Positions 6,873 through 48,109 are shown, counted from the first letter of the stretch. The stretch: DNA of 64,000 bases from an uncultured Verrucomicrobiae bacterium (GCA_963815455.1 CAWFGO010000001.1:1671602-1735601); one strand, 5' to 3'. Numbers and translations: made by a program. The notes: generated by a model from the sequence alone, not told the origin.

Positions 6873-6958
6873 TTTATCTTCATAGGTAAATCAGGCGATT
6901 CGTGTCCAATTTCAGATTCGGCGTGACAAAAACGTGACAGATCTTCAGGATCGGACGC

Positions 6959-10260: not shown

Positions 10261-10575
10261 AAGGCGGCCGGTGCCGGTACCTCGCCACCAGCGTGCACGG
10301 GGGAACGCAAAGAAAGTCTGGGACCGCAAAAACTCTGGCAACGGATTCGACAGGCCAGTTCAAGATTCTCATCCTTTTCTGGCCCGTGTCCGCCGAGACA
10401 TTCGCAACCGCTTTGAGCTTTCGCCTGTGGAAAGCGAATCGCTTCACGGGCTTGAGGCTGACAAATGGGCATTTCGGCGTCAAGACCGGGGTTGCTGAAC
10501 CTGGCCCGGGCGCGGGGATTAGCGTTGACCTCTGCCACCGCCCTGTGTCACAAAGGACTCGTTAGCGGATTCACG

Positions 10576-11464: not shown

Positions 11465-11523
11465 ACGCAATAACGGGCCGTGGACTGTTGTCGTGCCTGT
11501 TGAAGGAAACTCTCATTAGCTTT

Positions 11524-12469: not shown

Positions 12470-12539
12470 GGGTAAATCACTGCAGCCTATCGGCCTGTTG
12501 AACTTTTATCTCGCCTGCTGAAAAGATTTGCGTTACCTA

Positions 12540-13463
12540 TTAGCCGTTGGCCGCGGAAGTCATTGTCGTGGTGAGCTCTACCGCAGCCTTTAATATCTGG
12601 AAGATGTAGGGTTTTCCCAGCCGGTTTTGGAGGGGGCTGGTGGCAAGAGACTTGATCGGAGGGAACCCAACCAGGGGTTCCACCCGGCGCAATAACGTAA
12701 TGCCCAACGCGTACCGTTCTTCTGCAGCGTATTCGTGAAAACAACCCTGGCGCCCCGCGGCTCGCCACCAAGACTCGGCGAATCCGCGGACGGGTCCTGG
12801 TGACGTCTCGCGCCGTCAGCGCTCACCCACATGCTCCCCCGATCGCCGTCGCGCACGCTCACGCTTTTGCAGCAGTCGAGGCAATACACAACCAGGTTCC
12901 AAACCACGATAAACCCTCCAGTGAGCGTTTCGTGCCCCGAATTTAAACAACCTTCTACGCCTGTGTAGCTAACGTTCCGCGGCAACGAGCCGGTAGGGAG
13001 CATGAAACTTGGTGCCCAGGGCCATGGCAAGTCCGGCGAACGGGTTCATGCCCGGGGTCGACGACTGACCGGACACCTTGCATTCGGCAGCCGGGCCCCC
13101 GATGCGGCTGAACTGAATCGTGGCCGTGGCCCGCGTGCTGATTTTTATCCAAATCTCGCCTTTCTCTCGCCGGCCCTCGACTGCAATATCGAAGGTGTCC
13201 GGGGTCACCGTGTGCATAAAGATGCAGCCGTCGCTTTCAACAAAGGCACGGGAACGCGGTGAGATATATGCTTTGCCCGTGCCCCTGATCCGTCCCGCAT
13301 CGTCAATCGTGAACCACAGGGCGCTGTCCGAAAAGTCCGCGTAAACGTTTCCTTCGCCGAAAAGCTGTAGGCTTCCCGACCAATGGGTATCGGCCAACGC
13401 CGGCGAACATCCGAGCCTACAGGCAATGGCTACCCAACAGATGAAAGCGAGATGGCGTTTCAT
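12540..13463 (-). CDS. Secreted Cys-containing protein with C-terminal SH3b-like domain, paralog 2 (frameshifted)
   Basis: Shares SPALADTHWSG, AFVESDGCIFMHTVTPDTFDIAV, FSRIGGPAAECKVSG, GMNPFAGLAMALGT, DCCK and PGWVPS with paralog 1. Confidence 0.6.
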
Positions 13464-13577
13464 TATTCCGGGCATGTGTGCCCCCTCCTGCGGATTGAGA
13501 CGCTCACGGACCACATGCAGTTCCAATCCCTAAAATCCACACTGGCCTTAATAACCGGCGCGTGTCTCATGATCATG

Positions 13578-15497
13578 TCAGTTCGGCGGGGGCGTGCCTT
13601 CCGCGCCGTCTGCTTTCTTTTCAACCGGAGCGTCCTTCGCTCCTGCTGACTCGTTCTTCGCCGCAGCAACGTCGCCCGCTGTCACCTGCACAGATAATCG
13701 CCCGGTGCCCGGCTTGAATACTTTGTCGTGAACTTCGCCGCCGGAATTTACCACGCCGACGCTCACGTAAGCGTTTCCGCTCAGCGTCGCCGGCCAGCTC
13801 ACCGCGAGAATTTGCGCGTCGGGCGGATTGTTTTTGATGACGAGCTTCTTCTGCGCGACCTGCACCTGGTCGTCGTCATACAGCGTCAGGGTGAACGTCG
13901 CCTTGATTCCACCGTTGTTGATGGTCGCGTCGTAAAACGGCTTCTGCAACGCGGCCGCGACCTCCACCGGATCACTTTTTTTGACCGCGAACTTGTAGAA
14001 CGCCACCTCGTCGAGTTTCAAATCGCTTGTCGCCAAAGCCGGTGCTTTCAGCTCGGTCGCGCTATTGAAACCGGCACCGCCGGCAGTTTCCGTGCGCGCC
14101 ATTGAAGAGCCCTGCGCTCCCGCGCCCGCCGCCTCGCCCTCGATCTTGATCTTCAGCGTATAAGGCGAGGGCGCCGGATTCTTCGGTTTGTAAACTTCAT
14201 TGGGCCGTCCGTCCTTGTTCTGATTGTAGGACGCGGCGATGGAAAGGTAGGCCAGTCCGTCGGACTCCGCAGTCCATGTGGCCCTCAGGGTCACCGGGTC
14301 GGTTGGATTGCCTTCAGCAATGGAAGTCTCCCGCGCCACCTGCGAGAGGTCCTTGTTGTAAATCGTGACCACGAAGGCCTCGTTGACGACTTTGTTGTCA
14401 CCTTCGTATGGCGTTTTCTGAATGATCCCGATGGCGCGCAATTCCTGGCCTTTGTGCAACATGACCTGGTAATACTTCGCTTCCTTCATCGCCAGCTCGC
14501 CCTTGTAATCACCGGGCGGCGTGAGCGGCGCGTCGCCGAAAAACACTCCCGGCTTCACCGCTGCGCCGCCCGCTTCATATTCCCTGGTCTCGCGCGGTGT
14601 CGGGGTTGGCGTGGGGGTTGGGGTCGGGGTAGCGGTTGGAGTTGGCGTCGGTGTGGCAGCGACTTTTTCGGCGACCACTTTGTTCAGCGCGGTCGCCAGC
14701 TCATCAGCGTTCTCGACAGTCAGGAGTTTGCCGTGCCCTTTGGAGGCGATGTCTGCCAGTTCCGCCTTTTCCTTCGGCTCAATCCCGAAGCCGATGACAT
14801 TAATCCCGAACTTTACGCCAAACTCCGCCGCCAGTTTCGCCGCCACGCCCGCCGGATCGCCGTGGCAACTCTCCGCCCCATCGGTCACGAGCACGATGGC
14901 GCTGCCGCCTTTCGCTTTTTTCAGTTCTTCGCCCGCCTTGATCAAAGACGAGGCAATCGGCGTCATGCCGCTGGCGTTGAAGCCAATAATCCTGGTTCTT
15001 AACGCCGCTTTGTTGATCGGCCCGAGTGGTTGGACGATGTCGATGTCTTCGCATCCGCGTTTCTTGGATGTGCCGTAAACCACCAGCGCGACGTTTAGGT
15101 CGTTCGGCAATTTATCGATCAAATCGCTGACGCATTTCTTGGCTGACGCCACCTTGGTCGCCCCGTCTTTCATTTTCGCGTTCATGCTTCCGGAGTAATC
15201 GACAATCAGTGCGAGATCGCTGATTTCCGAGCTCTCCGATCCCGTCGCGGCGGCAGCCGAACCGGACGATTGCATAGCCGCAATCAGCGCATCCGACGCC
15301 CCGGCTTTCTTTAGCCGCGCGATATCTTCGGTGCCCAGGACAAACGCAGTGCCAGAGCTTCTGACTTTCTCGACGATGGTTTGCTCGGGAATCTTCAGTT
15401 CGAGCAATTTGACGACATCTTGCTGGGTCAAGACCTGCGCGACGGCACTCGTTAGGGCAAGACAACAAACCAGGAGCGGGAGGAGGTAATGTTTCAT
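13578..15497 (-). CDS. Secreted von Willebrand factor A domain protein with Pro/Thr linker and two repeated C-terminal beta domains
   Basis: Signal peptide, MIDAS DYSGSM, GMTPI, LVTDGAESC, (TP)n linker, internal repeat QKTPY..TIYNKD..W..GLAYLSI / QKPFY..TLYDDD..W..GNAYVSV. Confidence 0.85.
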   Translation of the reverse strand: MKHYLLPLLVCCLALTSAVAQVLTQQDVVKLLELKIPEQTIVEKVRSSGTAFVLGTEDIARLKKAGASDALIAAMQSSGSAAAATGSESSEISDLALIVDYSGSMNAKMKDGATKVASAKKCVSDLIDKLPNDLNVALVVYGTSKKRGCEDIDIVQPLGPINKAALRTRIIGFNASGMTPIASSLIKAGEELKKAKGGSAIVLVTDGAESCHGDPAGVAAKLAAEFGVKFGINVIGFGIEPKEKAELADIASKGHGKLLTVENADELATALNKVVAEKVAATPTPTPTATPTPTPTPTPTPRETREYEAGGAAVKPGVFFGDAPLTPPGDYKGELAMKEAKYYQVMLHKGQELRAIGIIQKTPYEGDNKVVNEAFVVTIYNKDLSQVARETSIAEGNPTDPVTLRATWTAESDGLAYLSIAASYNQNKDGRPNEVYKPKNPAPSPYTLKIKIEGEAAGAGAQGSSMARTETAGGAGFNSATELKAPALATSDLKLDEVAFYKFAVKKSDPVEVAAALQKPFYDATINNGGIKATFTLTLYDDDQVQVAQKKLVIKNNPPDAQILAVSWPATLSGNAYVSVGVVNSGGEVHDKVFKPGTGRLSVQVTAGDVAAAKNESAGAKDAPVEKKADGAEGTPPPN

Positions 15498-15742
15498 AAG
15501 TGGAGAAGTTGCGCGCCGGAAAAGGCGCGAAGCATGAACAGAAGAGCGTGATTGCCGCGGCCGTGCGGCTCTCTCATTAAGAGCGATCTTAGAGATTACG
15601 GTTCGCCGGCGTCAAGCCCACATTTGGAAGCCTAACGCGAGCAAGGTTGGACTGGGGGAACCAAGTCTATTTTCACGATCTTCAGCTTCCTCATTGCTGT
15701 TGTTGAGCCGGAATTGCGAGACGAATTCGCGCTATGCAAACC

Positions 15743-15766
15743 GCGGAGCCTACGGGGCTCGAACCC
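15743..15766 (-). other. tRNA 3'-end fragment (T-arm plus acceptor strand), possible relic att site of a different tRNA (Asp-like)
   Basis: Minus strand reads GGGTTCGAGCCCCGTAGGCTCCGC; no 5' half present. Confidence 0.5.
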
Positions 15767-16449
15767 AGTGTCGATCACGGTGAGGTTGAGAAGTGAGGCT
15801 ACCTACCCCTCCATCCACGATTACCGTAGGAAGGCAGATTTTCATCGGACGAACCGGCCCTTCGAATTTATCGCTCGCTGCCCGCCGTAAAGGTATTGCT
15901 CGCTGCGCTGCGCTCCACCTTGACTGTGCTCGCTCCGCGGATGGGAGGTCGTTATCGGTTTGCGTTGGAGATCATTTTGCTAATCTTCAGCGCTGGCAAT
16001 TCCAGTGGATGCTCGTGAAAATTCCCGTGACAAAACGTGACAAACTTCGTCCGATTTTGTGCCTGTTAGTGGCTGAATCAGTTTTCATGGGCGAGCGGTT
16101 GCGTTTGCGTAAACACCTGATGGCGCAGGTGATAAACTGATATAAGCGGTCACAGAACTTGTGAGTTCGACGGGTTCGAATCCCGTTAGGGTCGCCATTT
16201 ACCTTCATAGGTAAATCAGGCGATTCGCGGCCGATTTCAGATTTGGCGTGACAAACGTGACAGATCTTCAGGATAGGACGCGTGAAAGCGAAAGCTGTTT
16301 TTCGACGGCCTGGCTGACGGCGCGAATGAGCAATTCGTCTTGAATTTCAACGCACAACATCGTGCTAGTCGTTCGGCGTGATTTCCATTTTCAAACCGAG
16401 CTAAGGGCTCGCAATCGACGGTCTATTTTGCTAGATTACGTCTGTAAAA

Positions 16450-16761
16450 GTGGATTCCAGAAGTGTGCAAACGGAAGAAATCAGTTCCCCGCGTTTGGCT
16501 GCCATAGCGCGCCGCGTTTGCTGGTGGGAACCGGCTGCCACGACCCTTGAAAACACGCCGTTGTTTCTCTGCCGGATCATGGCGCTGGGAACGTGGGAGG
16601 ACATCTGCATTGCTCTGGACCACTATGGCATGGATGCTTTTCGCAAAGCATTGCAAAATGCGCCTCCCGGCCTGTTCGACCCCCGTTCGTGGTATTACTG
16701 GCACCACCGCTTGAAGCTTCTGCCTGTTCCATCCTTACAGCACCGCGTCATCCCCGCATGA
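16450..16761 (+). CDS. Small putative antitoxin partner of the AbiEii-like nucleotidyltransferase
   Basis: ARRVCWWE..RIMALGTWED..APPGLFDPRSWYYWH; ATGA overlap with the downstream toxin gene. Confidence 0.7.
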   Translation: MDSRSVQTEEISSPRLAAIARRVCWWEPAATTLENTPLFLCRIMALGTWEDICIALDHYGMDAFRKALQNAPPGLFDPRSWYYWHHRLKLLPVPSLQHRVIPA

Positions 16762-17408
16762 AGCCACGGCTGGATGTTTTGCTTCCCCAGGGGAGGCATC
16801 TGTGGTCTGAGCTTTCCGAATTACCTGAGCATTTCGTTTTGTATGGTGGAACGGCGATTGCCTTGCGCCTTGGTGGAAGACAATCCGTCGATTTCGATTT
16901 TTTCACGAACCAACCCATTTCGGCAGACCTTCTAAGCCGGAGTCTGCCATTTCTCCGCGGAGCCGAACTGATTCAGTCCGAATCGAACACGTCAACGTTC
17001 ACCATCCGGCGTGATGGAGAAATCAAAGTTTCATTTTTCGGCGGACTCACCATCGGCCGTGTTGCCGATCCCGACCGTTGCGAAGATAACGGAGTCTTCA
17101 TCGCGTCGCTTCCCGATCTCGCAGCGCAAAAGGTAAAAGTGGTTCTGGCACGCGCGGAGGCGAAGGATTACGTCGACATTTATGCGTTGTTGAAAGCCGG
17201 CATCACTTTGCCCACGGCTCTGGGAGCGGCCAAAGCGCTGTATCCCGAATTCAACCCGGTGCTGTCCCTGAAAGCCCTCGCATATTACGGCGAGCCGGGC
17301 CTTGCCGCGATGCCGGTGGAGATTCGCGAATTTCTCACAGCAGCAAGCGCAAAAGTAGAATCGGTCGAGACGATTTCTAAAATCGCACCCGGCATCAGTC
17401 CGTCGTGA
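16758..17408 (+). CDS. Nucleotidyltransferase, AbiEii/AbiGii (type IV TA) toxin family
   Basis: LYGGTAIALRLGGRQSVDFDFF, KVSFF, DLAAQK...RAEAKDYVDI. Confidence 0.88.
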   Translation: MKPRLDVLLPQGRHLWSELSELPEHFVLYGGTAIALRLGGRQSVDFDFFTNQPISADLLSRSLPFLRGAELIQSESNTSTFTIRRDGEIKVSFFGGLTIGRVADPDRCEDNGVFIASLPDLAAQKVKVVLARAEAKDYVDIYALLKAGITLPTALGAAKALYPEFNPVLSLKALAYYGEPGLAAMPVEIREFLTAASAKVESVETISKIAPGISPS

Positions 17409-17663
17409 CAAGACGTGACAAATTTTGCCGAAATTCGTGCCTGTTAGTGACCGAATAAATTCTGCACCTGTGGGACGAGATTTTATATAAGTTAATAATA
17501 ATCAGTGATATGGGTAAACAATGATCGGTCACAAAAATTAGTCAGTCGACGGGTTCGAATCCCGTTAGGGTCGCTGTTTTTCGCGGCAACGGGGCGCTCG
17601 GTCCGTATCGTTGACAACGTTGCCCGCTATCGTGGAGAATCCGCGCTATTGCGGAAACGGCTC

Positions 17664-35826: not shown

Positions 35827-36036
35827 ATGGATAACATCATTGAAGCGAAAGAGCTGCAGATAGAGCGCAAGCACTTCTACGTCGAGTTCCGCGAGAACGA
35901 TCGGGGGAAATTCTTGCGCATTACCGAAGAAGCGCATGGCCGCCGTAACACCATCATCGTGCCGAGCACGGGCGTGGATGAATTTACTACGGCCATCGAC
36001 GAAGTGCTCGAGAGCGTCGAGATCGCTCCGGCCTGA
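35827..36036 (+). CDS. Single-repeat PUR-family ssDNA/RNA-binding protein
   Basis: KELQIERKHFYVEFRENDRGKFLRITE..GRRNTIIVP is a PUR repeat. Confidence 0.8.
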   Translation: MDNIIEAKELQIERKHFYVEFRENDRGKFLRITEEAHGRRNTIIVPSTGVDEFTTAIDEVLESVEIAPA

Positions 36037-36172
36037 TCCGAACTCTTTTCGGGTCCCCGGCAACGATCACCGCGATGATTTGGCGAAGCCGGCGGCCCTT
36101 TCCGAACTTCGGATGCTTGCACCTGACAGAATTCCGCGCCTTTTCTTAAGTCAACCGGCCGTTGCTTGGCGG

Positions 36173-36568
36173 TCAGCGACTGTTCTTCGCGACCCGGAGC
36201 TTTACCAGTTTCCGCACCAGAGCGGCCGGCAGAGGTTTGTCCGCCGGAAAACGGATGGTGCCTTTGGTGGTGTCGTAGTCCTGGAGCTCGTCCTTAAGGA
36301 TCTCCAATACAGAACCCGGGTAGAAAGCGCAGTGGTTCGCGGCGGCGCCGTAGGCCACAAGCAGTTTCCCATTTAGACGAAACGCGGGAAGGTCGTAGCT
36401 GATGCATTCCTCCGCTCCCGGCGCCGCGGCCCTGATCGCCTTCCGAAGCGCCTCGAGCGCAGCTCGTTTGTCAGGGCTAACCGTTGCGAGGTAAGCGGCG
36501 GGTGTCTTGGGCTTGCCTGTCCGGGCCGCTTTCCGAGTCCGCCGATGGCTGGTTTTCTGCAATTTCAT
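36173..36568 (-). CDS. DUF1801 (YdhG-like) protein
   Basis: AAPGAEECISYDLPAF, HCAFYP, KGTIRFP.DKPLP. Confidence 0.88.
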   Translation of the reverse strand: MKLQKTSHRRTRKAARTGKPKTPAAYLATVSPDKRAALEALRKAIRAAAPGAEECISYDLPAFRLNGKLLVAYGAAANHCAFYPGSVLEILKDELQDYDTTKGTIRFPADKPLPAALVRKLVKLRVAKNSR

Positions 36569-36619
36569 CTCATTGACCTACACGATCCGCTGACCAAACA
36601 ACCTTTGACCCAACCGGAC

Positions 36620-36682
36620 CTAATCAAGATCGACATCGACGCGCAACGCCAAAGAGCGGTTGACTGGAGCGTTTTGTTAGAC
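36620..36682 (-). repeat. Truncated terminal attC (gene-proximal half only)
   Basis: Nearly identical to 44793-44854; the distal arm is missing. Confidence 0.8.
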
Positions 36683-36685
36683 CCA

Positions 36686-37186
36686 TTACTTTTTATCCGG
36701 CAATGACATAGTAACGAAAGGCTCGTCCGGGCCTTTAACCTTCCGTGGGCCGTTAACGACTCGAACCTGGACTGGAAAAAGCGCCGAAGGCGGTTTGGGT
36801 ACAATCTTCGGAAGATGGAGATGTTCTCTGATACACTCCGCGTAGGGATTTTTGGGCTCGTGAAATAGCGAGTCGACGTGCCCCTCAATCGAGACAAGAA
36901 AAATCATGACCTCGGACGCATCCGGCTTAAATGCGGGCGTGTCACACGCTCGCATCGCTTCGACAATGCTTTTGCTGATGCTCTGCAGGAACTTCAGCAC
37001 ATACGCGTGCCCGGCGCTCGTGCTGAACTTCTGCTGAGCTTTCTCTCCCAGAACTTCGTGGGTGGCCTTCACGGTGGCGTCGCGAACAATCGCCTCCAAC
37101 TCTGGCGAAATCGTAGCGCTCTTGTCCTGAGCCGCGCCCGTGAGAGCGGTCGCAGCCGATATGAGGAGGATCAGCGTAGTGCGCAT
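36686..37186 (-). CDS. Cassette 11: exported hypothetical protein
   Basis: Signal peptide MRTTLILLISAATALTGAAQ; lies between attC sites. Confidence 0.75.
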   Translation of the reverse strand: MRTTLILLISAATALTGAAQDKSATISPELEAIVRDATVKATHEVLGEKAQQKFSTSAGHAYVLKFLQSISKSIVEAMRACDTPAFKPDASEVMIFLVSIEGHVDSLFHEPKNPYAECIREHLHLPKIVPKPPSALFPVQVRVVNGPRKVKGPDEPFVTMSLPDKK

Positions 37187-37315
37187 AGGTCTAACGAGAA
37201 CAAGATGAGCGACGGCGGACGGGGGCGCGCGTTGCTCGGAGTGGAAGGGTGAAAATCATCTCAAATGTGGAGCGCACGGCGGTCCGCCGTTCGCTGCATC
37301 GCCTTATAGGTTAAC

Positions 37316-37617
37316 CAGAGTTGTTCATGATCTGCGAAGGGGAGCGCGACAAAAGCGGCTCCCTCATCACCATCGACAGATTGTGAACAACTCTGCGGCC
37401 TCCAAAATGTTGAGCGTTGATAAGTCACCCGTTTTAATTCTTTTTCCACTTTGGGAGAACACGCACCGGCCCGTTACGAATATCCATTGCATGCGGTTCC
37501 AAGACCACTGTAACCAGACTTTCGGACGGGCTCGGTGCGCTCTCGTTCGACAAACGAATTCTCATTTGCCGACGCGTGTTCAACGCCTCGACTATAAGGC
37601 CTTCGCAGAACGGGAGC
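37316..37617 (+). ncRNA. Predicted bridge RNA of element A
   Basis: 5' hairpin (12-bp perfect IR 37316-37327/37384-37395); stem-loop 37463-37538 containing TAACCAG (rc of target CTGGTTA); stem-loop 37539-37617 containing CTATAAG (rc of donor CTTATAG). Confidence 0.75.
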
Positions 37618-37683
37618 AATTGCGTGTTTGCCCAAAAAGGCAAGATTAAAACCTCAATCCAACCAGAAAGGAACCAAACTCCC

Positions 37684-38952
37684 ATGAATCAAACCAACCA
37701 ATCCTTGGCCGCTTACATTGGCCTGGATCGATCGGATAAAAAAATCAACGTGAGCCTGCAGCGAGCCGGTGTTGCCAAAATTGAACGCAGCACCATCAAA
37801 GGCAGTGCCGAATCGCTTCATACCTGGGTGGCCGCGCTCTGCGCTCGGTTCCCGCATCAACGCGTGGCCATCTCTCTGGAGCAGCCGGCGGCCGGGCTCA
37901 TCCACGCGCTGATGGGTTACGAGTTCATCGTTCTGTTTCCCATTAATCCGGTAACCCTGGCCCGGTATCGCGAGGCCTTTACTCCGAGCCGGGCCAAGGA
38001 CGATCCCACGGATGGCGATTTTCTATGTGAACTGGTGGCGTTGCATGGCGAGCAACTCAAAGCCTGGCAACCCGATGATGTCGCTACCCGCAAGCTGCGT
38101 CACTTAGTCCAGGCCCGGCGCCGCAGTGTGAACCTGCGCACCCGGCTCTCCAATCAGCTCAAAGCGCTGTTGAAAAGTTATTTTCCCCAGGCCCTCGAGC
38201 TCTGCGGTGAGGACCTGACTACGCCGATGGCTTGCGCTTTTTTACAAAAATGGCCTTCTCTCCAGCAGCTCAACAAAGCGCGCCAAGAAACGATCCGCCG
38301 CTTTTATTATGCTCACAATGCCCGGCGCGGCGGTGTGATTGAAAAACGGCTTGCTCTGATCGCCCAAGCCGTCCCTCTGACTAACGATGCCGCTCTGATC
38401 GAAAGCTCGATCGTTACCGTTCAAGCGCTGGTTTTGGCCTTGCGCGCCGTTCACACTGCCATTGCCCGATACGATCGCGAGATCGGCCGCACCTTCGCTC
38501 AGCATCCCGACGCTTCACTCTTTGCCGCTCTGCCTGGCAGCGGCACTGTTTATAGCCCCCGGCTCCTGGCCGCCTTCGGCTCGCGGCGTGAGATCTTTGA
38601 AAACGCCGAATCCATGCTCAACTTCAGCGGCATCGCTCCGGTGCTCAAACGCAGTGGCGCCTCCACCACCATTGTTCGGCGTTACGCCCGGCCCCTTTTC
38701 GTTCACCAGAGCTTCATCGAATACGCTAACGAATTGATCCGGCATAGCCTCTGGGCCCGCGCCTTCTACCAGATGCACAAGGAAGCCCAGAAAAGTCACT
38801 GGGTCATCATCCGCGCCCTGGCTTACAAATGGATCCGGATCCTCTTCCGCTGCTGGCAGGAGCGCACCCCCTACGACGAATTGCGCTACCTCAAATCCCT
38901 CCAAAAAAGCCGCTCACCCTTGCTCCAATATCTCGCCCAACCAACCACTTAA
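37684..38952 (+). CDS. IS110-family DEDD recombinase/transposase A
   Basis: YIGLD, SLEQ, AKDDPTDG, LPGSG, GIAPVLKRSG (catalytic Ser), RALAYKWIRI. Confidence 0.95.
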   Translation: MNQTNQSLAAYIGLDRSDKKINVSLQRAGVAKIERSTIKGSAESLHTWVAALCARFPHQRVAISLEQPAAGLIHALMGYEFIVLFPINPVTLARYREAFTPSRAKDDPTDGDFLCELVALHGEQLKAWQPDDVATRKLRHLVQARRRSVNLRTRLSNQLKALLKSYFPQALELCGEDLTTPMACAFLQKWPSLQQLNKARQETIRRFYYAHNARRGGVIEKRLALIAQAVPLTNDAALIESSIVTVQALVLALRAVHTAIARYDREIGRTFAQHPDASLFAALPGSGTVYSPRLLAAFGSRREIFENAESMLNFSGIAPVLKRSGASTTIVRRYARPLFVHQSFIEYANELIRHSLWARAFYQMHKEAQKSHWVIIRALAYKWIRILFRCWQERTPYDELRYLKSLQKSRSPLLQYLAQPTT

Positions 38953-39024
38953 CCCGCCTCAATAACCTCACTCAAAACTATTGACGGACTACCTCAGATG
39001 TCTGGTTAGATGGTGGACGTGGCT

Positions 39025-39270
39025 TCATCTCGGATGGTGAAAGAGACTCTTCATAAAATGGTAACCATGATATCCGACGATTACCACGAGCGACCAAAAT
39101 CCCGTGCAAACGATTACAGCGAGAGCCTTCGCGAGTAATAGTTGCGGCCATGTGCAATCACATGCAGGGGCTGCGAGCAAACCCGACATCACTCCAAGAA
39201 AGAAAACGGCGTATAGAAAGAAGCGATGAGGTCTCTGATCGAGTGTTGGCTCTTCAATGGGCTTCATCAT
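39025..39270 (-). CDS. Cassette 10: small two-TM protein (MKPI family)
   Basis: MMKPI...GYHGYHFMKSLF; similar to 44162-44404. Confidence 0.7.
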   Translation of the reverse strand: MMKPIEEPTLDQRPHRFFLYAVFFLGVMSGLLAAPACDCTWPQLLLAKALAVIVCTGFWSLVVIVGYHGYHFMKSLFHHPR

Positions 39271-39421
39271 CTAACGAGACGGAAGTGAGCTACCGCCACC
39301 GAGAGCGAGCGGGGCTCGAAGTAAAGAGGTTCTAGTCATCTGAAAATGTGAGCGTACAACGGTCCGCCGTTAGATGCCATGAAGGGTTGAAAAGCGTGGG
39401 CAAAACGGGCACACGCGTTGT

Positions 39422-40542
39422 ATGAAAAACAAAACAACAACAACCCTTCATGGCGGAGAGAAGTTTAACAATTCAAGCGCCCCTGGCAATGGGGCAGTGA
39501 GGCGGGTGTGGAAGCTTGGGCTGGACGTGGACCTGCGTTTTATGGTGGTGGCGATCCAGTGTGGGCGGGGAACGATTGGGCCGGCGCGGAAGTATACTCG
39601 CGAGCAGTTGCTCGAGTGGGTGAAGCAAAAAGTGGGTGTAGGCGATGTGGTCTACGCGGTGTGGGAATGCTGCGGATTTGGGTACACGTTCACGAGCAAT
39701 TAACTCAAGCGGGAGCAAAGAGCGTCGGGACGACCCCGATGCGATTAAATTTGGAGCGGCGGCGGAAGAACGACCGGATGGATGCGCGCGAGTTGTGTGT
39801 GCGATTGAGCCGTTACCTGGATGGGCAGAGAGAGGAATTAAGACCAATCCGAATCCCGAGCCGGGCGGAGCAACAACGGCGGGAGCTGGGGCGGCAGCGG
39901 GAGTTTTGGAAACGCCAAGTGCGGCGGCTGGAGAATCACGGGCGAGCGCTGCGGATCGAGCACGAGCATGAGACGCTGGAGGCTGGGTGGGGCGGACCGC
40001 GGAAGTGGAAACGAATCGGGCCGCAGTGCAGCGAGTTTGTGCGCGGGCAGCTTGAACCGGTCATGGAACAGATCCGAGCGGCCAAAGCGCAATTGGATCG
40101 GTTGACCCAGGAGATTGAAGCGCTGGTGAGGGAAGAAAAAATCCCGACGGGATTGGGTGCGCTAACGGTATCGCTGATCGACGGGGAGGTGTGCGATTGG
40201 CAACGCTTCAAGCATCGCAAAGCCGTGGGCAGTTACACTGGGTGTTGTCCTAGCGAATACAGTTCGGCCGGGATCCAGCGTTTTGGAAGCATCGACCGGC
40301 ACGGCAACAAACATTTGCGCACGCTCCTGGTCGAGGCGGTCTGGCGACTTCTTCGCTGGCAGCCTAACTGGCATGCTCGTCAGAAATATCTGGAGAAATT
40401 AAGGCACGGCGCCTCGCTGAAAAAGAAAATCGCAGTGGCCCTGGCCCGGCAACTGGCCATAGACATCTGGCGTTGGCGAACCGGCCGGGCCAGTGCCGCC
40501 GAACTGGGCTGGAGCCTGTCTACATCCCAGGTGAAACCCTAA
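39422..40542 (+). CDS. IS110-family recombinase B (frameshift near 39690)
   Basis: LGLDVD, WECCGFGY, RKNDRMDA, GCCPSEYSSAG, GNKHLRTLLVEAVW, VALARQLA. Confidence 0.9.
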
Positions 40543-40590
40543 CAAACAGATTTAACCCTCAGCTTTTACGAAACGGAACTTCCAAGCAAA

Positions 40591-40811
40591 GTTTGATTTG
40601 GCCGCAGGGTGGAACGCTGCTCGGCGCTGGAGCTGGTCCTTTGAAACGAAGGGATCATCGCTTAGATGGGGCGCGTTCCGCCCAAAGCGGCTTCCCAAAG
40701 TCAGGCACGACATCATGGGCTCGCACAACAAAAGCGATGCTCGAATAGGAGCTGGTGACTCGCCCCGGCGAGACAACACGACAGAGGGAAGCTGCACCCT
40801 GCGGATCAAAC
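40591..40811 (+). ncRNA. Predicted seek/bridge RNA of element B
   Basis: Stem 40607-40617/40673-40683 encloses CGCTGGAGCT (rc of target AGCTCCAGCG), an inner hairpin and TTAG; second stem 40687-40696/40786-40795 encloses ATAGGAG. Confidence 0.75.
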
Positions 40812-40909
40812 CACTAAAGATTGGAAAAACCGGGAAAGGAAAAAACTAAAGAAAAACAAACAATACCCGTTCCACGGTTGACAACCCTCATAGGGGCTCC
40901 AGCGATTGG

Positions 40910-41308
40910 TTAGACCGCATTGGCAACTCCATGGCGCAATCGCCAACATACTGCCGCCCATACGAAAGGTAATACAACAAGAAGGGCTATGTCACATGTC
41001 CAGAACGCCACCGTCCAAGACAAGCTAACTAAAGTCCAGAAGCCATATCCCCGAATCTGTTGGTAAGCTATAGGCCCGAGAAAACAGGCGGGCGCAAACG
41101 AAGCGACGAGTAGTATCCAAGCGATAATTCGACGGGGGCGTACTGCGAACCAAATCGAAAGGCCAACCACGCAGCAAACCAGTACAATGACGGGCGTGAC
41201 TGTGGCGACGTCGCTAGCCCGGACGCCTTCGCCCCAGAGGGCCATTGCACAACCAGCCAACAACGGTATCCAGGCAATTGCTGTTAGCACCGAAATCACT
41301 CGGATCAT
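40910..41308 (-). CDS. Cassette 9: four-TM hypothetical membrane protein
   Basis: Hydrophobic ORF whose stop codon lies in the attC inverse core. Confidence 0.7.
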   Translation of the reverse strand: MIRVISVLTAIAWIPLLAGCAMALWGEGVRASDVATVTPVIVLVCCVVGLSIWFAVRPRRIIAWILLVASFAPACFLGPIAYQQIRGYGFWTLVSLSWTVAFWTCDIALLVVLPFVWAAVCWRLRHGVANAV

Positions 41309-41322
41309 GGCATTTCTTTGAG

Positions 41323-41445
41323 GTCTAACGAGAACAAGCTCAGCCACCGCTGACGAGAGCGAGCTGTGCTGCGGATTTCAATGTTGAAGTTGTCATATGT
41401 AAATTCTCTCGTCGGTCAGCGGTTGGCTGGAGCGATTGGTTAGAC
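41323..41445 (-). repeat. attC 8
   Basis: GTCTAACGAGAACAAGCTCAGCCACCGCTGAC...GTCAGCGGTTGGCTGGAGCGATTGGTTAGAC. Confidence 0.92.
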
Positions 41446-41457
41446 GAATCGGCATGC

Positions 41458-41889
41458 TCATGGTTTTGTCAGAACTGGCGTAACCACCGATCCATCCAAC
41501 AGCACAACGACGCGTGGGTCCTGATCCGCTTCATCTGTCGGGGTTCGATCGGCGAAGCCAATCCAATAGAACCATAGGCTGATCGGTATGTCCTGCTTCA
41601 CCGGCCGATGAAGCGCGACATAGGTGACAGGAAGTTCTCCAGTGCGGCCTTGAGACCGAAGATAGCTGCGTGCAATCTCGATGGCGCGCGAGGGAGAAAG
41701 TTCGGGGTCGCGCCGCGTGTTCCACGCGCCAGTGTCCTGTAACCTCGCCTCGGGGACGCTCCACGTCAGCTTCCAGTGGAAGCCAGTAACAGATATCAGC
41801 TCACGCGTGCCTTGCGCGGTGGATTCACCAAGCATCGCGAGCGCGAACAGCGGCAGCGAAGTAAGCAGCAGAAGCGTTGCGCGTCTCAT
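41458..41889 (-). CDS. Cassette 8: exported hypothetical protein
   Basis: Signal peptide; PELSPSRAIEIARSYL...VVVLLDGSVV. Confidence 0.72.
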   Translation of the reverse strand: MRRATLLLLTSLPLFALAMLGESTAQGTRELISVTGFHWKLTWSVPEARLQDTGAWNTRRDPELSPSRAIEIARSYLRSQGRTGELPVTYVALHRPVKQDIPISLWFYWIGFADRTPTDEADQDPRVVVLLDGSVVTPVLTKP

Positions 41890-42044
41890 TCGTCTAACGA
41901 GACCGAGCTCAGCCACCGCTGGCGGGAGCGAGCGTGGTTTGCAATGAACGTGTTTTCATAAAGGAAAGCGAGGCCGTACGCCGGCCAGCGGTTGGAGTCA
42001 TGTAGGCTTCCAGGACAGCGCCCGGAGGCACTATCCTGGAAGTT

Positions 42045-43175
42045 ATGATTACCTACAAAGTAGAAGATAACGTTGTGACCCAGTTTTCTGCAATCTTTAA
42101 AGGGCTTGGGTCGAAACCGAGTGTGATTCACATGGCGCTGGATGTCGAACTCCACGGCGGAGTGATGGCGGTGCGAGTGGCGGGCGGGCGACCAATGGAT
42201 TGCGGCCAGTGTAGCCGGAGCACGATTGCGAAGTTGGCCTGGGAACTGATTGACCGCGGGCACCGGGTGGTACTGGTGGAGGAGGCGTGCGGGTTTGGCT
42301 ACGCGTTTCATCGGCAACTGCGTGGAATGGGAGTGGAGGCGTATGTGGTGGCGACCGAGATGCTCAACCGCAAACGCAAGACCAATCGGCGGGATGCGGC
42401 CAAGCTGCTCGATCAGCTTTACGATTACGATGTTAACGGGCACAAAAAAGCGCTGCGCATAATCCGGGTCCCAACCCTCGATGAGCAGAAGAGCCGGCGG
42501 CTTTGCCGGATGCGCTCGCAGTTGGTCAAGGTGCGTAACATCATGGAAGGACAAGGCCGCGGGCTCCTGTTCGATTTCGATTACCATGAAGTGCCGCCAG
42601 GCTGGTGGGGACCGCGCAAATGGCCCAGGCTGCGGGCAAAACTTCTCCAGCACGATGCCTGGCTGATCGAGATGCTCGAGCATCACCAGCGTTTGCTCAT
42701 TGCTCAGCAGAGAAGAATTGCCGAGCTGGAGCGCGAGATCGCCCGGGAAAGTCATTACGATGGGCGCAAAGTAGCCAAGGGCCTGGGCCAAATCACCTTC
42801 GATTCTCTGCAACGCGAAGCGCTGGATTGGAAACGCTTCGCCAATCGCAGAGCGATCGGCTCTTACATTGGCTGTTGTCCGGCGGAATTTAGTACCGGCT
42901 CCAGACAAAAGCTTGGGAGTATCGATCGACTGGGTAATCGCCGCATGCGCACGCTGTTAGTCGAAGCGGTCTGGCGACTGAAAAAATGGAATCCGGGCTG
43001 GCGGGGATTTGGGAAATTTCCCCACGTCTTTGGTCACGGAGCCAGCGCCCGCGGAGCCACGCGCAAAAAAGCGGTGGTAGCCTGTGCCCGACTGCTGGCG
43101 ATCGATCTGTGGCGACTCCAAACCGGGCGGGCCACGCTCAAAGATCTCGGACTCAAACCAGCCCAGGCCCGATGA
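42045..43175 (+). CDS. IS110-family recombinase C
   Basis: MALDVE, EEACGFGY, RKTNRRDA, GCCPAEFSTG, GNRRMRTLLVEAVW; homologous to B. Confidence 0.92.
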   Translation: MITYKVEDNVVTQFSAIFKGLGSKPSVIHMALDVELHGGVMAVRVAGGRPMDCGQCSRSTIAKLAWELIDRGHRVVLVEEACGFGYAFHRQLRGMGVEAYVVATEMLNRKRKTNRRDAAKLLDQLYDYDVNGHKKALRIIRVPTLDEQKSRRLCRMRSQLVKVRNIMEGQGRGLLFDFDYHEVPPGWWGPRKWPRLRAKLLQHDAWLIEMLEHHQRLLIAQQRRIAELEREIARESHYDGRKVAKGLGQITFDSLQREALDWKRFANRRAIGSYIGCCPAEFSTGSRQKLGSIDRLGNRRMRTLLVEAVWRLKKWNPGWRGFGKFPHVFGHGASARGATRKKAVVACARLLAIDLWRLQTGRATLKDLGLKPAQAR

Positions 43176-43296
43176 ACACAGAAAAACTGTCATACGATAC
43201 CCGCATGGCTTGCTCCATCAAAGCCCCCAAAGGTTTGGTAGGGGGACTTTGATTCCGCAATCCATGCTTTAGCGAACCTCACTAAATGAATACTTT

Positions 43297-43503
43297 GGAC
43301 AGTTGGGCGACAGATCGAAGCTCTGCAGCTGGCCGGCCGCACTGGCCTGGCCGCCGTGTTAGAATGGTCGGCGCCCCTCTGTCCTCCCTCTTGATACGCG
43401 TCGAATTAGACACATTGCACTGCTCCAAGAATAAGCATGTGCGGATAGGAGTTTGTCTCGCATCCCTTCAAAAAGGAATAAGCCGAACCAAAATAGAGGG
43501 AGG
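43297..43503 (+). ncRNA. Predicted seek/bridge RNA of element C
   Basis: GGACAG..GGGCG / CGCCC..CTGTCC stem encloses CTGCAGCT, an inner hairpin and GTTAG; second stem 43383-43391/43495-43503 encloses ATAGGAG. Confidence 0.72.
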
Positions 43504-43589
43504 AGCTGTTCCGAAGCCTAACCAACTAAATCGAATGAACTAAAACCTTTTTACCTCCAAACGCTGATCCTGTTCACCACGCTTGACCC

Positions 43590-44015
43590 TCATAGGGGCT
43601 GCAGCGATTGGTTAGGCGTTTGGCGATACTCGCGTGTGACGTCCTCAATCCCCTTCGCAAGGACAACGCCCTCAAATCCCACGGCCGAAGAAATCTCCCA
43701 CGCGTGCAAAGACTCTGACTCAAGCGCTGCCTTATATCGCGTGCGATCGCTGTCCCACCGCGAGACACCATGCTGGCGATTCCACTCCGCCAAGCGGTCG
43801 GCGAACCGATCTACAAACTCGGTCAATGGAATCTGTGCGATGTCCAGGATGATCGCGCCGCCGGTATGGACGAAATGGTAAAACTCAACATCGCGGAAGC
43901 GAATGTGCGATTCCTCTGGGGGTTGTGGCGGATAGTCGTAGACAAGGTGCAGTACGATTTCGCCGCCGAACCTGCGAACTTCGTAGCCGCTGAGGTGGAA
44001 ATCGTGGAAGCGCAT
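43590..44015 (-). CDS. Cassette 7: hypothetical cytoplasmic protein (reads into the attC)
   Basis: MRFHDFHLSGYEV...ISSAVGFEGVVLAK. Confidence 0.75.
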   Translation of the reverse strand: MRFHDFHLSGYEVRRFGGEIVLHLVYDYPPQPPEESHIRFRDVEFYHFVHTGGAIILDIAQIPLTEFVDRFADRLAEWNRQHGVSRWDSDRTRYKAALESESLHAWEISSAVGFEGVVLAKGIEDVTREYRQTPNQSLQPL

Positions 44016-44021
44016 CTTTAC

Positions 44022-44145
44022 GCCTAACGAGAACAAGCTCAGCCACCGCTGGCGGGAGCGAGCTTTGCTTCAGAGTTGAATGTTGAAGTCATGTGAAAAC
44101 TAAACGTCGGAACGGCCAGCGGTTGGCTGGAGCGATTGGTTAGAT
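44022..44145 (-). repeat. attC 6
   Basis: GCCTAAC...GTTAGAT with consensus arms. Confidence 0.92.
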
Positions 44146-44161
44146 CGTTGGCGTGCCATGC

Positions 44162-44404
44162 TCATGTGCGGAGAAATAGGCTGCGGAAGAATCGGTAGCC
44201 GTGGTATCCGGCCATAATGAAGGGCCATGAGAAAAGAAAACCGCCAAACGCACAACCAATCTGAGAAAGAACGAGTTGGTATCCGCTGATATCGCACATC
44301 GGTCTGACTGCGATGCCCGCAGAGATGCCAAACGCAGCGGGGAGATACAGGGTGACAATCCGAGGAGGCTTTTTCTCCGGCAGTGATGTGTCGATCGGTT
44401 TCAC
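44162..44404 (-). CDS. Cassette 6: small two-TM protein (MKPI family)
   Basis: [16 protein letters not shown]...GYHGYRFFRSLF. Confidence 0.7.
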   Translation of the reverse strand: MKPIDTSLPEKKPPRIVTLYLPAAFGISAGIAVRPMCDISGYQLVLSQIGCAFGGFLFSWPFIMAGYHGYRFFRSLFLRT

Positions 44405-44405
44405 G

Positions 44406-44528
44406 ATCTAACGAGAATGAGCTCAGCCACCGCTGGCGAGGGCGAGCATGGACTGAAATGGATGCGCTTTCATAAATCCTGGCGAGGCACCGCGACGGCC
44501 AGCGGTTGGCTGGAGCGATTGGTTAGAT
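44406..44528 (-). repeat. attC 5
   Basis: ATCTAAC...GTTAGAT with consensus arms. Confidence 0.92.
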
Positions 44529-44731
44529 GGTGGACGTGACTTCACGAGAAACGTGGTAGGAAAAGTCTGTGGGAGAGAAGGGGGCTTTCGCCTCATGGGA
44601 AATAATGAATCAGAATCGGGAGAAAAGCGCTACTTCAAAATGAGCGGTGTAATCAGACGATTCCATTGAGCGCGTCGAATCTGCTTCGAGGACTTGGCCA
44701 TCAGTCCTTCTGTGGAAGCGCGCAGAACCAT
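44529..44731 (-). other. Cassette 5: ~200-bp cassette with only a ~33-codon ORF
   Basis: Between attC 5 and attC 4; the ATG in the core site gives MVLRASTEGLMAKSSKQIRRAQWNRLITPLILK*. Confidence 0.7.
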
Positions 44732-44855
44732 CTAACGAGACGGAGCTCAGCCACCGCTCCGGCAGCGCGGCTCCGCAACGGTTGAGAATACACTAATCAA
44801 GATCGACATCGACGCGCAACGCCAAAGAGCGGTTGGCTGGAGCGATTTGTTAGAT
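44730..44855 (-). repeat. attC 4
   Basis: ATCTAACGAGACGGAGCTCAGCCACCGCTC...GAGCGGTTGGCTGGAGCGATTTGTTAGAT. Confidence 0.92.
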
Positions 44856-44879
44856 GATTTCGGTGAAGGGCTCAACATA

Positions 44880-45203
44880 TTAGCCCGCCATCAGGTAAGC
44901 GTTGACAATCTGGATTACGAACGCGACCCCAAGCAGCGTCCAGCCGCGCTCTGCTCGGAGAAAGAAAACAAAAACAGCGACTAATGCAACATAGAACAAC
45001 GCCCCCCAGCCGGAGATAAGACTTACCATGAGCGTCCAGGGAACGATGCCGCTGCCGAATGGATTTATCCAGCCCACGCGAATCCACCAGCCAAACGTGA
45101 TCGCGATCATGCATGTAACGACAAACAGGAACGCCCGTCCAGCTACCGAGCGAAACGCCGCGGTGAATATGGATAGCGGATAGTCAGCGGCCGGTTCGCG
45201 CAT
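44880..45203 (-). CDS. Cassette 4: small membrane protein
   Basis: Three hydrophobic segments; lies between attC sites. Confidence 0.68.
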   Translation of the reverse strand: MREPAADYPLSIFTAAFRSVAGRAFLFVVTCMIAITFGWWIRVGWINPFGSGIVPWTLMVSLISGWGALFYVALVAVFVFFLRAERGWTLLGVAFVIQIVNAYLMAG

Positions 45204-45206
45204 ATC

Positions 45207-45330
45207 ATCTAACGAGAACAAGCTGAGCCACCGCTGGCGGGAGCGAGCGTGGCAAACAAGGGGAACTGTTTCATAAAATCAAACGTGGACTTCACAGCGG
45301 CCAGCGGTTGGCTCGAGCGATTGGTTAGAT
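45207..45330 (-). repeat. attC 3
   Basis: ATCTAAC...GTTAGAT; close copy of attC 1. Confidence 0.92.
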
Positions 45331-45351
45331 GTGTTAACGCTCATGCGCAGC

Positions 45352-45669
45352 CTAACGGCTCTGTCCATTTGTTCTTGCTCGTCGCCGAAGAAAAACATCG
45401 AAAAGAGCGCCCCAAACAATCCACTGAAGTCCGCCGATCACCAAAACCGCGACGGCAAATTGCCACTCTGGCCACAAAGTCGCTCTTAACATTGTAATGA
45501 TGAGACTCAAAGGAAGATCTAGCTGGATTGGGTAGAGCCAGAACATCGGACTGTTTGGGTCCGTGCTCACCACGGTAATCCGCCAGATCCACGCGACGAA
45601 AAGTGTGTGCAAACACAAACAAATCAAAGCAGACGGCCACCGCCTCATGATAGCAACGACGCTCAACAT
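45352..45669 (-). CDS. Cassette 3: small membrane protein
   Basis: PMFWLYPIQLDLPLS...IGGLQW; hydrophobic. Confidence 0.68.
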   Translation of the reverse strand: MLSVVAIMRRWPSALICLCLHTLFVAWIWRITVVSTDPNSPMFWLYPIQLDLPLSLIITMLRATLWPEWQFAVAVLVIGGLQWIVWGALFDVFLRRRARTNGQSR

Positions 45670-45790
45670 CTAACGAGAACGAGCTCAGCCACCGCTGGCG
45701 GGAACGAGCTTTCGTAACATCGACAACTGTTTCATAAGGAAAAGCGAGATACCGCGACGGCCAGCGGTTGGCTGGAGCGATTGGTTAGAT
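45668..45790 (-). repeat. attC 2
   Basis: ATCTAAC...GTTAGAT with consensus arms. Confidence 0.92.
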
Positions 45791-46089
45791 GACTTCGGTG
45801 TGCCACGAAAATGGCGCCTAACTAAAGCGATGACACTGGCCAACCACGCAATGAACACCACGGCTATTCGCGTGTATAACTCCGCGCGATACCACTCGAC
45901 CCAGCCCCGAAACCACTCGGGTGGGAGAAAACGAAAGTGCCAAATCTGGCGAATCATATCGGCGTCTGTCTCTCCTGGCCGCGACATCCAAACGATTGCG
46001 ACGAGCATGGCGCTCACTAACCACAACGCTAGCGCCGCGGCAAGCAACGTGACAACCAACAGCTGAATAACTAGTGCGCGCTTAGTCAT
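45685..46089 (-). CDS. Cassette 2: two-TM protein whose ORF runs through most of attC 2
   Basis: ATG overlaps the GTTAGATG core; tail SNQSLQPTAGR is attC-encoded. Confidence 0.65.
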   Translation of the reverse strand: MTKRALVIQLLVVTLLAAALALWLVSAMLVAIVWMSRPGETDADMIRQIWHFRFLPPEWFRGWVEWYRAELYTRIAVVFIAWLASVIALVRRHFRGTPKSSNQSLQPTAGRRGISLFLMKQLSMLRKLVPASGG

Positions 46090-46211
46090 CTAACGAGAAA
46101 AAGCTGAGCCACCGCTGGCGGCGGCGGGCGCGGCAAGCATCACGAACTGTTTCATAAAATCAAATCTGGACTTCACAACGGCCAGCGGTTGGCTCGAGCG
46201 ATTGGTTAGGT
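46088..46211 (-). repeat. attC 1
   Basis: ATCTAAC...GTTAGGT with consensus arms. Confidence 0.92.
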
Positions 46212-46663
46212 CGCCTGTCTACATCTGGTGCTCGTATCAATGACTTCGCCATTGCTCGCGCGAATTACGGTGACGGCGACGCCGCCCATCATGTTGGGTG
46301 GCAGATAACCTCCAAACGATCCAAAAGTCGCCGGACCGGACGGCATAAAAGCTGTTCTGCTGCGATCTCGCATTTGCCGTAAATGGCGCCACAAACCGCG
46401 CTGTGAATGGCCGCTGCTACCTCCGCCGTTGGGACGACAGGCGATGCATTGCTCATCGGTGACTCGCTGCGATACCTGCCCGGCGTGCTGGGTAGAGAAG
46501 ATCGTCGGCGGTTGGTGGCGCGAGCCGCAGCGAGCAATCCCAGCCCGATGCCCAACGATGTAACCGGCTGCGCCCAGATGCCAATCGCAACGCAGAACAA
46601 ACGGGTGACAACAATGATCCGAGGAGGCTTTTTCTCCGGCAGTGATGTGTCGATCGGTTTCAC
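46206..46663 (-). CDS. Cassette 1: MKPI-family N-terminus fused to a YbbC/YhhH-like (NTF2-fold immunity) domain, frameshifted
   Basis: [11 protein letters not shown]....AIYG...EQ, then in another frame [24 protein letters not shown], matching the family pattern VPD.ETA.....IYG...G.LP....GGV....I....G.I. Confidence 0.55.
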
Positions 46664-46664
46664 G

Positions 46665-46690
46665 ATCTAACGAGAAGTGGACGGAGAAAC
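46665..46690 (-). other. Putative attI site (core GTTAGAT at 46671-46665)
   Basis: Last core site before intI, with no palindromic arm beyond it. Confidence 0.7.
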
Positions 46691-46764
46691 CATGTAATTA
46701 CTTTGCGGAGTTTGTCTGTCTAATTGGCTTGCCTGCCCGGGAGCAGCCGAATAAAACTGTGGTC

Positions 46765-47820
46765 ATGTCCTCTGATTTAACTCTGGAAGAATCAGCTGCC
46801 AAGTACAAAATGCCTGCGGCTCAGGAGGCCCAGCCCAGGTTGCTCGATCGGGTCCGCGATGTCATGCGGCTGAAGCATTATTCTTTGCGAACAGAGAGAA
46901 CCTATTGGGAATGGATCGAAAGATTCATTCGTTATAACGGCACAGGGCTGCCTCCAGCGGCCTGGCCGCATCCCTCTAAGCTGGGTCCGGACGAAGTGAC
47001 GGCCTTTCTGACTCATCTGGCCCGGGACCTGAACGTTGCCGCTGCAACCCAGAATCAGGCCTTGAGCGCGTTGTTGTTTCTTTACAAGGAAGTGCTCAAG
47101 AAAGACATCGGCTGGCTCGATGGAGTAGAGCGAGCAAAGAAACCGTCGCGCCTTCCGGTGGTGCTGACGCGCAGCGAAGTAAAACGCATTTTCGAGCATC
47201 TCCGGGGCACGCCTCGATTGATGGCAGGCCTGCTTTACGGTAGCGGGCTGCGCTTGATGGAGTGCGTCCGGTTACGCGTGAAGGACGTAGATTTCGGCTA
47301 CACGCAAATCGTGGTGCGTAACGGCAAGGGTGGAAAGGATCGAGTGACGATGTTGCCGGTCAATCTAGCCGTGTCGTTACAACTCCACCTCGATAAGGTG
47401 CGGGCGCAACATGCAGAGGATCTGGCCAACGGGTTCGGTGCGGTTTATCTGCCCGACGCGTTAGAGCGAAAATATCCCAACGCGGCGCGGGAGTTCGCCT
47501 GGCAGTATGTGTTTCCCTCGCGCAAGCTCTCGATCGATCCGCGTTCGGGCTCGGGAGGAGAACCGCCATTTCGGGGGCGACACCACGCCAACGAGACCTG
47601 GTTACAACAGGAGGTGAAGCGAGCCGTACGCGAATCGGGCATCGATAAAGCAGCCAGTTGTCATACGTTGCGACACTCATTTGCCACACACTTGCTGGAA
47701 AATGGCTCCGATATCCGGACTGTTCAGGCCTTGCTCGGGCACAAAGATGTAAGCACGACCATGATTTATACGCACGTTTTGAACCGGCCGGGGATTGGAG
47801 TGCGAAGTCCGCTGGACTAA
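46765..47820 (+). CDS. intI: Integron integrase
   Basis: [31 protein letters not shown], IntI-specific insertion [12 protein letters not shown]...[38 protein letters not shown]. Confidence 0.98.
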
Positions 47821-48109
47821 GAACGCGGAGCGTTCCGGTTGATCGGTTATTTGTTAAGGGTTATTCGGGGGGGGTGTAGAATCGGTAGTCGTTTGCCTTC
47901 CCGAACGCTTCAGCCGATGCACAAGGCTACGGCTCGACAAGACGGCGTGACAGACAGGCTGTGGCTATAGGAGAGAAAGGCAATTGCGGCCGACACTCCG
48001 AAATTCTTCGCCCGCCGCGGCGGGCAGGCTGAGCAGGCGGCCGCCCCTACACCAAAAGGGACGGCTCGCAGAGCCCCGCACACGGCGGGCAGGCTGTGGC
48101 TACCGGAGA

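Follow-up and report, generated by a model that had tools for sequence, protein, structure and literature searches.

Among described systems, insertion sequences (IS) of the IS1111-attC subgroup (ISKpn4, ISPst6, ISPa21 and ISPa25), which insert into the attC sites of integrons antisense to the cassettes and have been described as monophyletic (PMC3001079), offer the closest parallel in behavior. SeekRNAs encoded downstream of the transposase in the attC-targeting ISKpn4, ISPst6 and ISPa25, together with their natural reprogramming, have already been published (PMC11187229); in the same account, terminal extensions of 7/3 or 6/3 nucleotides (nt) with subterminal inverted repeats are those of IS1111 elements. 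In IS621, the bridge RNA carries a target loop followed by a donor loop (PMC11208160; PMC11208158). The window analysed here, a 64-kb stretch of Verrucomicrobiota DNA taken as a whole, contains an integron whose cassette array lies to the left of the integrase gene on the minus strand. Three attC sites of this array are interrupted, each by an element with an IS110-family transposase: A (transposase at 37576-38952), B and C; the initial annotation had counted only the last two. B and C, which lie antisense to the cassettes in their attC sites, are very probably IS110-family elements of the IS1111 type in which a two-loop bridge/seek RNA from the right end would guide insertion into attC, a target that their lineage would have reached independently through guide change.

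The ends of B and C are set by comparison with other copies. All five copies of B in the genome (C is present once, and a third relative, D, as one fragment) start with AGATGCC and end with CATAGG, the contig C6 copy being cut by the contig end, and the two bases following CATAGG in the four copies with a right junction are GG, CG, CG and AG. Among 88 relatives having both junctions, the left junction base is A in 82 and G in six, five of these beside a G target; when the first base is left unrestricted, A is found in 67/70, including 20/20 cases with C at the right, and the right junction carries the original base predicted from the left attC arm in 14/17. AG thus belongs to the element. The 10/10 complementarity first proposed between guide 1 of B and AG|target had borrowed the first two bases of B; the window target is GTT|GGCTCCAGCG, with which guide 1 forms nine of ten Watson-Crick pairs and one G·U pair. 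The target of C, formerly written G|CTGCAG, becomes GTT|GGCTGCAGCG, with the element start given in Table 1. The start GGAGTC of C recurs in one relative (L129), and AGAGTC is found in three copies in genome G1077; a 2-bp duplication was considered for C and rejected as unnecessary, three relatives beginning with AGAGTC next to CG or AG targets. The inverted repeat has ten matches and one bulge in B (extensions 7/3) and is short and imperfect in C (6/3); the shared element end CATAGGGG is present at 40889 and 43591.

Downstream of the transposase gene, B and C have non-coding regions of 352 and 421 nt, respectively, which are predicted to encode a bridge/seek RNA in which a target loop is followed by a donor loop. 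The strings on which the initial annotation was built (CGCTGGAGCT, GTTAG and both copies of ATAGGAG at the positions in Table 1, and CTGCAGCT at 43323-43330) are in place, and the layout it described for both elements, an outer stem, guide 1, an inner hairpin, guide 2 and a second stem-loop, is recovered when each sequence is folded singly (B, z=-2.99; C, z=-1.66) and when the alignment of each lineage is folded. Pairs with changes on both sides number 12/44 in 21 B-type RNAs and 11/64 in eight C-type RNAs; a wider alignment of 50 sequences predicts 11 pairs, seven with both-side changes, mostly in the donor-loop stem. An Rfam scan of 36000-48000 gave a single match at chance level.

Covariation was analysed on loci collected by protein searches, in which B relatives were found in Verrucomicrobiota records, and by one metagenome pattern scan for the right junction (at least 122 loci). 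Upstream sequence was sufficient in 185 of 197 donor-guide candidates, and 182 of these were retained; removal of two false or duplicate rows left 180 elements and 149 unique insertions. Five of the insertions were dropped, in two cases because the target loop was deleted or truncated and in three because the right flank was shorter than 10 nt. The remaining 144 insertions form 39 RNA clusters at 75% identity; 68 insertions occupy the B/C position, 41 the attC R box and 35 other sites. Target loops were placed by sliding match with a profile anchor. Many pattern matches yielded no RNA owing to a short contig, flank or element, and the sequences of the unpublished genomes G936 and G982 were used for no claim. 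Several pattern-scan loci (L088, L105 and others) are short elements with an internal deletion that keep both ends in attC and have lost the RNA. One B relative (L002, about 2240 and 3725) is without the first six left-end bases and sits five bases further into a CTGCAG site.

Guide 1 matches its own right flank better than it matches those of other elements: the best 9-nt match averages 7.59 against 5.71 in shuffles (39 clusters, one element each; 0/20000), 7.19 against 5.55 in the 16 non-attC clusters, and 7.23 against 5.47 across 13 mutually distinct targets. The single base by which the B and C targets differ was said to be mirrored in the guides, and the relatives bear this out: hexamer position 3 matches in 59/64 unique RNA/target pairs (26.7 when shuffled, 43.3 when shuffled within clusters; 0/20000 reach 59 in each) and position 6 in 56/64 (38.8 when shuffled; 47.8 within clusters, 6/20000), positions 1, 2 and 5 being set by the search pattern or class rule and testing nothing. 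By lineage, position 3 matches in 51/54 pairs of B and 8/10 of C (329/20000 shuffles), and guides for CTCCAG, CTGCAG, CTCCAT and CTTCAT are present in both. Two near-identical elements of one genome (L017 and L041) differ in both guides, and each matches its own flanks. With matches of only 4-10 nt and elements related by descent, chance or inherited look-alikes with no guiding role could be suspected; the same guide/target states, however, recur in two lineages that share just 39% identity, shuffling within clusters does not reach the observed position 3 count, and target classes unrelated to one another each fit the guide of their own elements, which makes this reading extremely unlikely.

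The strand to which guide 1 pairs was rightly noted to be hidden in C by the palindrome CTGCAG; it is settled by non-palindromic guides of relatives, with guide-target pairs CTGGAG with CTCCAG, ATGAAG with CTTCAT, and CTCCAG with CTGGAG (L120). Guide 1 pairs with the plus strand and the cassettes run on the minus strand; consequently, its partner is the bottom strand of attC. The complementarity of guide 1 (8-10 nt) to this strand extends over the L box and takes in the extrahelical base. Guide 2 (4-5 nt) spans the cut and matches the opposite strand: its agreement with the left flank is found in 28/34 clusters at position -2 and 26/34 at -3 (about 13 expected), and fades at -4 (16/34).

The second loop follows the other partner DNA. 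ATAGG had been put forward as a candidate donor guide, and the case is stronger than first stated: ATAGGAG spans the putative circle junction formed by the joined element ends, ATAGG|AG, and the fifth base of the donor guide equals the last base of the element in 143/144 insertions and 39/39 clusters, over four states. It could be argued that the target loop alone matters, as a short seekRNA, and that the protein reads the ends via inverted repeats, ATAGGAG being kept for another reason: an 82-nt seekRNA sufficed for ISEc11 movement (PMC11187229), and the 5' donor guide fits poorly by eye in some lineages, e.g., the attC R-box group. That the donor guide follows the element end in all 10 of the 39 clusters not ending in G, and that the inner stem of the donor loop is rich in compensatory changes, renders this alternative improbable.

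By analogy with IS621 (PMC11208160; PMC11208158) and ISEc11/ISKpn4/ISPst6 (PMC11187229), from which expression, circle formation, RNA binding and strand exchange are carried over, B and C would form a circle whose junction makes a promoter, the RNA would be bound by the transposase, and strand exchange would insert the element at GTT|NG of attC without duplication and antisense to the cassettes. A TTG-A/C-C/T hexamer beginning 17 nt ahead of the right end in 110/144 insertions is consistent with a promoter formed at the circle junction; a promoter scan of the linear sequence, to which such a junction promoter is invisible, gave one site against 1.8 expected. As in IS621, a target loop precedes a donor loop, and the donor core, which is CT when read on the strand opposite the transposase (minus), is flanked by one long guide and one of 4 nt; D-E-D-D and Ser, the catalytic residues of IS621, are present in intact B, and D-E-N-D and Ser in C. 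Unlike that of IS621, the B/C RNA sits in the right end with its orientation reversed, and, whereas the second T of the core is almost invariant in IS621 orthologues, B/C targets have the first core base fixed and the second free (A, C or G on the plus strand). The observed products, in which one side carries the target core and the opposite side the donor core, correspond to cleavage immediately 3' of the core, as on the IS621 top strand (PMC11208158; PMC11208160); the reciprocal product, with the target C at the left, is found in none of 20 cases. The junction bases (donor A left, target base right) fit models of top-strand, single-strand insertion (bioRxiv 10.1101/2025.10.25.684509; bioRxiv 10.64898/2026.08.31.748434), and repair bias could give the same result.

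B and C share with IS1111-attC elements a top-strand match 5' of the bottom-strand match (PMC11187229). The antisense orientation, the attC arm, an RNA downstream of the transposase and the 7/3 extensions, also shared, would be explained if they were divergent members of that lineage with inherited attC targeting. Their proteins are, however, longer (373-376 against about 347 amino acids), their host is a Verrucomicrobiota, and, within the aligned parts, they share about 26% identity with ISKpn4 and ISPa21, which is no more than they share with ISEc45. The B/C cut falls on the inner L-box edge, with 14 nt separating it from the R box, compared with 6 nt in ISPa21 (one reference site; record traced through PMC7232449). 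In a quick tree of 50 proteins, ISKpn4, ISPa21 and ISPa62 group with IS4321 and IS5708 (Shimodaira-Hasegawa-like approximate likelihood ratio test, SH-aLRT, 98), apart from the B/C family; at 373 and 376 amino acids, B and C fall outside this tight IS1111 cluster of 330-350. A single clade of the B/C family with ISPa21/ISKpn4 is rejected by the approximately unbiased (AU) test on a 27-row subset (p-AU 7e-05 and 5e-09; ISPst6 is not in the tree). Descent from IS1111-attC is thus very unlikely, and the B/C lineage seems to have arrived at attC targeting separately from ISKpn4/ISPa21. The B/C family is a branch of its own (33 rows, SH-aLRT 99); the nearest named transposases by BLASTP and tree, ISEc45, ISSso6 and ISRel9, join it at SH-aLRT 97 with 23-28% identity, and identity to B is 25-29% among the 40 plasmid matches ranked best. 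Because non-attC members branch deepest, attC targeting most likely arose within the B/C family, a placement made with few references and without an inferred root. To judge by these comparisons, B and C are elements that act like IS1111-attC elements without belonging to that subgroup. By title or abstract, no paper in the mostly open literature covered describes this clade; the large tables of PMC11208160 may include members.

Guide pairing may be needed but insufficient, with the folded attC hairpin as a second layer of recognition, as for ISPpu10, another IS110 element with a stem-loop-forming target and one for which a structural requirement has been shown (bioRxiv 10.64898/2026.03.19.712850). 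The R box, beyond reach of the guide, is present in 15/17 protein-selected L-box insertions, the guide covers the extrahelical base, and guide-perfect sites in the genome are occupied in 3/6 cases at attC against 0/8 elsewhere (p=0.055). The eight empty non-attC sites, however, all lie within long open frames (336-741 amino acids), and for this reason hairpin recognition is not separable from selection against gene disruption, which explains them equally well. In addition, the R box is missing in 2/17 insertions, many family members target non-attC sites, and the window attC of B, when rejoined, does not fold into an attC hairpin. A hairpin layer on top of guide pairing is therefore no more than a tentative possibility. 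The attC holding B looks chimeric; the 22 nt ahead of B are identical to those ahead of the contig C3 copy.

Which attC sites are taken was first attributed to the L-box hexamer. Uninterrupted sites do carry CTGGAG or CTCGAG, in 8/8 right halves in the window (six and two, respectively), and hexamer position 4 corresponds to the base left extrahelical in the attC hairpin, since its deletion restores the match to the left arm; position 3 is paired. The guide calls for C at position 4 in 63/64 pairs. The explanation itself fared less well: in the genome, G at position 4 is found in 0/5 occupied against 33/63 free attCs (p=0.054), and among metagenome loci in 4/103 junctions against 1/17 free neighbors, with no difference. 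Avoidance of G at the extrahelical position is not borne out by the metagenome control; as an insertion filter this base remains plausible, with one compensating case (L120).

Several observations weigh against guided insertion as set out above. Position 3 is mismatched in 5/64 pairs and position 6 in 8/64, and 5/144 insertions match at only 4-5 of nine guide positions. Guide-perfect attCs are empty, three of them for B, as are two CTGCAG attCs. Kinship among the elements inflates the significance given by shuffling, and of the 68 L-box insertions 51 were collected by a pattern scan in which part of the target was preset. The tree comes from a quick search, has long branches and includes 16 reference proteins. 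Finally, the B transposase in the window is frameshifted, and C has Asn (Asn114) for the third acidic catalytic residue.

How guides may be re-aimed is hinted at by genome G119, in which copies 3% apart in the coding region differ at up to 7/10 guide-1 positions, and each guide fits the L box predicted from one attC left arm (7, 8 and 8 of 9). Guide 1 might be rewritten as a block in the B/C clade, possibly templated from an attC arm, and so be re-aimed faster than point mutation allows. This idea is quite improbable: strong selection on point changes or misassembled collapsed repeats are plainer readings. If block rewriting were true, one genome would keep near-identical elements, each tuned to a different attC class. 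The near-identical G119 elements are L016, L036, L043 and L195; their right flanks look swapped between contigs, through assembly or recombination.

Other elements reach attC at other positions. A sister lineage, to which fragment D of this genome belongs and which is seen at L014 (G000:C1:1479897-1480480) and in 40 more insertions in relatives, carries CTAACC as its guide and cuts at a third position on the same arm, 1 nt away from the attC R box. Element A (about 37305-39000), an IS110 element 42% identical to ISEsa2 and outside the B/C family, occupies a CTGCAT attC site at a position unlike that of B/C, adjoins the R box and has a long non-coding end upstream, with TAACCAG at 37511 as a possible guide; it is possibly another independent origin of attC targeting.

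PF02371 is matched in both B and C transposases; on the IS110 transposase profile NF033542 (cut-off 140), intact B (a copy is at 711388-712506 of contig C2) scores 160.9 bits and C 139.7, at the cut-off. The catalytic residues of B are D35/E82/D118/D121/S281. The one-base deletion in the window copy of B may be an assembly error; among other copies, that at 1489 kb of contig C1 has an altered C-terminus and that of contig C6 is degraded. Asn at the third acidic position is also found in 115/120 top homologues of the C transposase, and the genome of one C relative holds three copies at different sites despite it.

The genome is unusually rich in integrons, with at least 63 free attC-like sites over several arrays (contigs C1, C2 and C3) and more integrase-like genes. 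In the window, a 60-nt stretch is identical at 44358-44417, a cassette start, and 46617-46676, the attI/integrase end, which suggests a duplicated cassette 5' end. Repeats resembling tRNA ends at 6845, 16170 and 17521 flank a region (6845-17579) with an integrase fragment and an AbiEii-like gene that looks like an integrated island.

Table 1. Positions of the integron integrase, elements B and C, their attC remnants and predicted RNA features, numbered from the first letter of the window.
Feature	Position	Strand	Remark
Left part (plus-strand view) of attC interrupted by B	39271..39371	-	left arm unlike right arm
Element B, IS110 family, IS1111-type ends	39372..40894	+	1523 bp; boundaries from 5 genome copies and relatives
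B left end	39372..39389	+	7-nt extension AGATGCC, subterminal inverted repeat
B transposase	39422..40542	+	one-base deletion near 39690 relative to other genome copies; intact copy 373 amino acids
B predicted bridge/seek RNA	40602..40804	+	target loop then donor loop, long-range closing stem
B guide 1, CGCTGGAGCT	40625..40634	+	complementary to right target flank, attC bottom strand
B guide 2, TTAG	40662..40665	+	left target TT and core AG
B candidate left donor guide, GACATC	40709..40714	+	5/6 complementary to left end of element; read by eye
B donor guide, ATAGGAG	40745..40751	+	7/7 to putative circle junction ATAGG|AG
B right end	40878..40894	+	TTGACA (-35-like), inverted repeat, 3-nt extension AGG
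Remainder of attC interrupted by B	40895..40913	-	GG, L-box hexamer CTCCAG, R box
Left part of attC interrupted by C	41894..41993	-	
Element C	41994..43596	+	1603 bp; left extension 6 nt GGAGTC (AGAGTC in three relatives), right 3 nt
C transposase	42045..43175	+	376 amino acids, 39% identical to B, D-E-N-D and Ser
C predicted bridge/seek RNA	43297..43512	+	
C guide 1, CTCTGCAGCT	43321..43330	+	8/10 Watson-Crick to GGCTGCAGCG
C guide 2, GTTAG	43358..43362	+	left target GTT and core
C donor guide, ATAGGAG	43445..43451	+	
Remainder of attC interrupted by C	43597..43615	-	GG, hexamer CTGCAG, R box
Integron integrase of the array	46642..47820	+	TIGR02249, 454.7 bits, cut-off 265

The mechanism is known; what is new is a separate transposase clade and a different cut position in attC. 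In this uncharacterised branch of IS110, both RNA loops co-vary with DNA, providing a natural, many-state test of bridge-RNA programming in which identical guide switches recur in two distant lineages. The B/C family also offers compact recombinase/RNA pairs whose guides can be read. Together, these observations suggest that RNA-guided elements have colonised attC sites on more than one occasion, at different positions along one arm.

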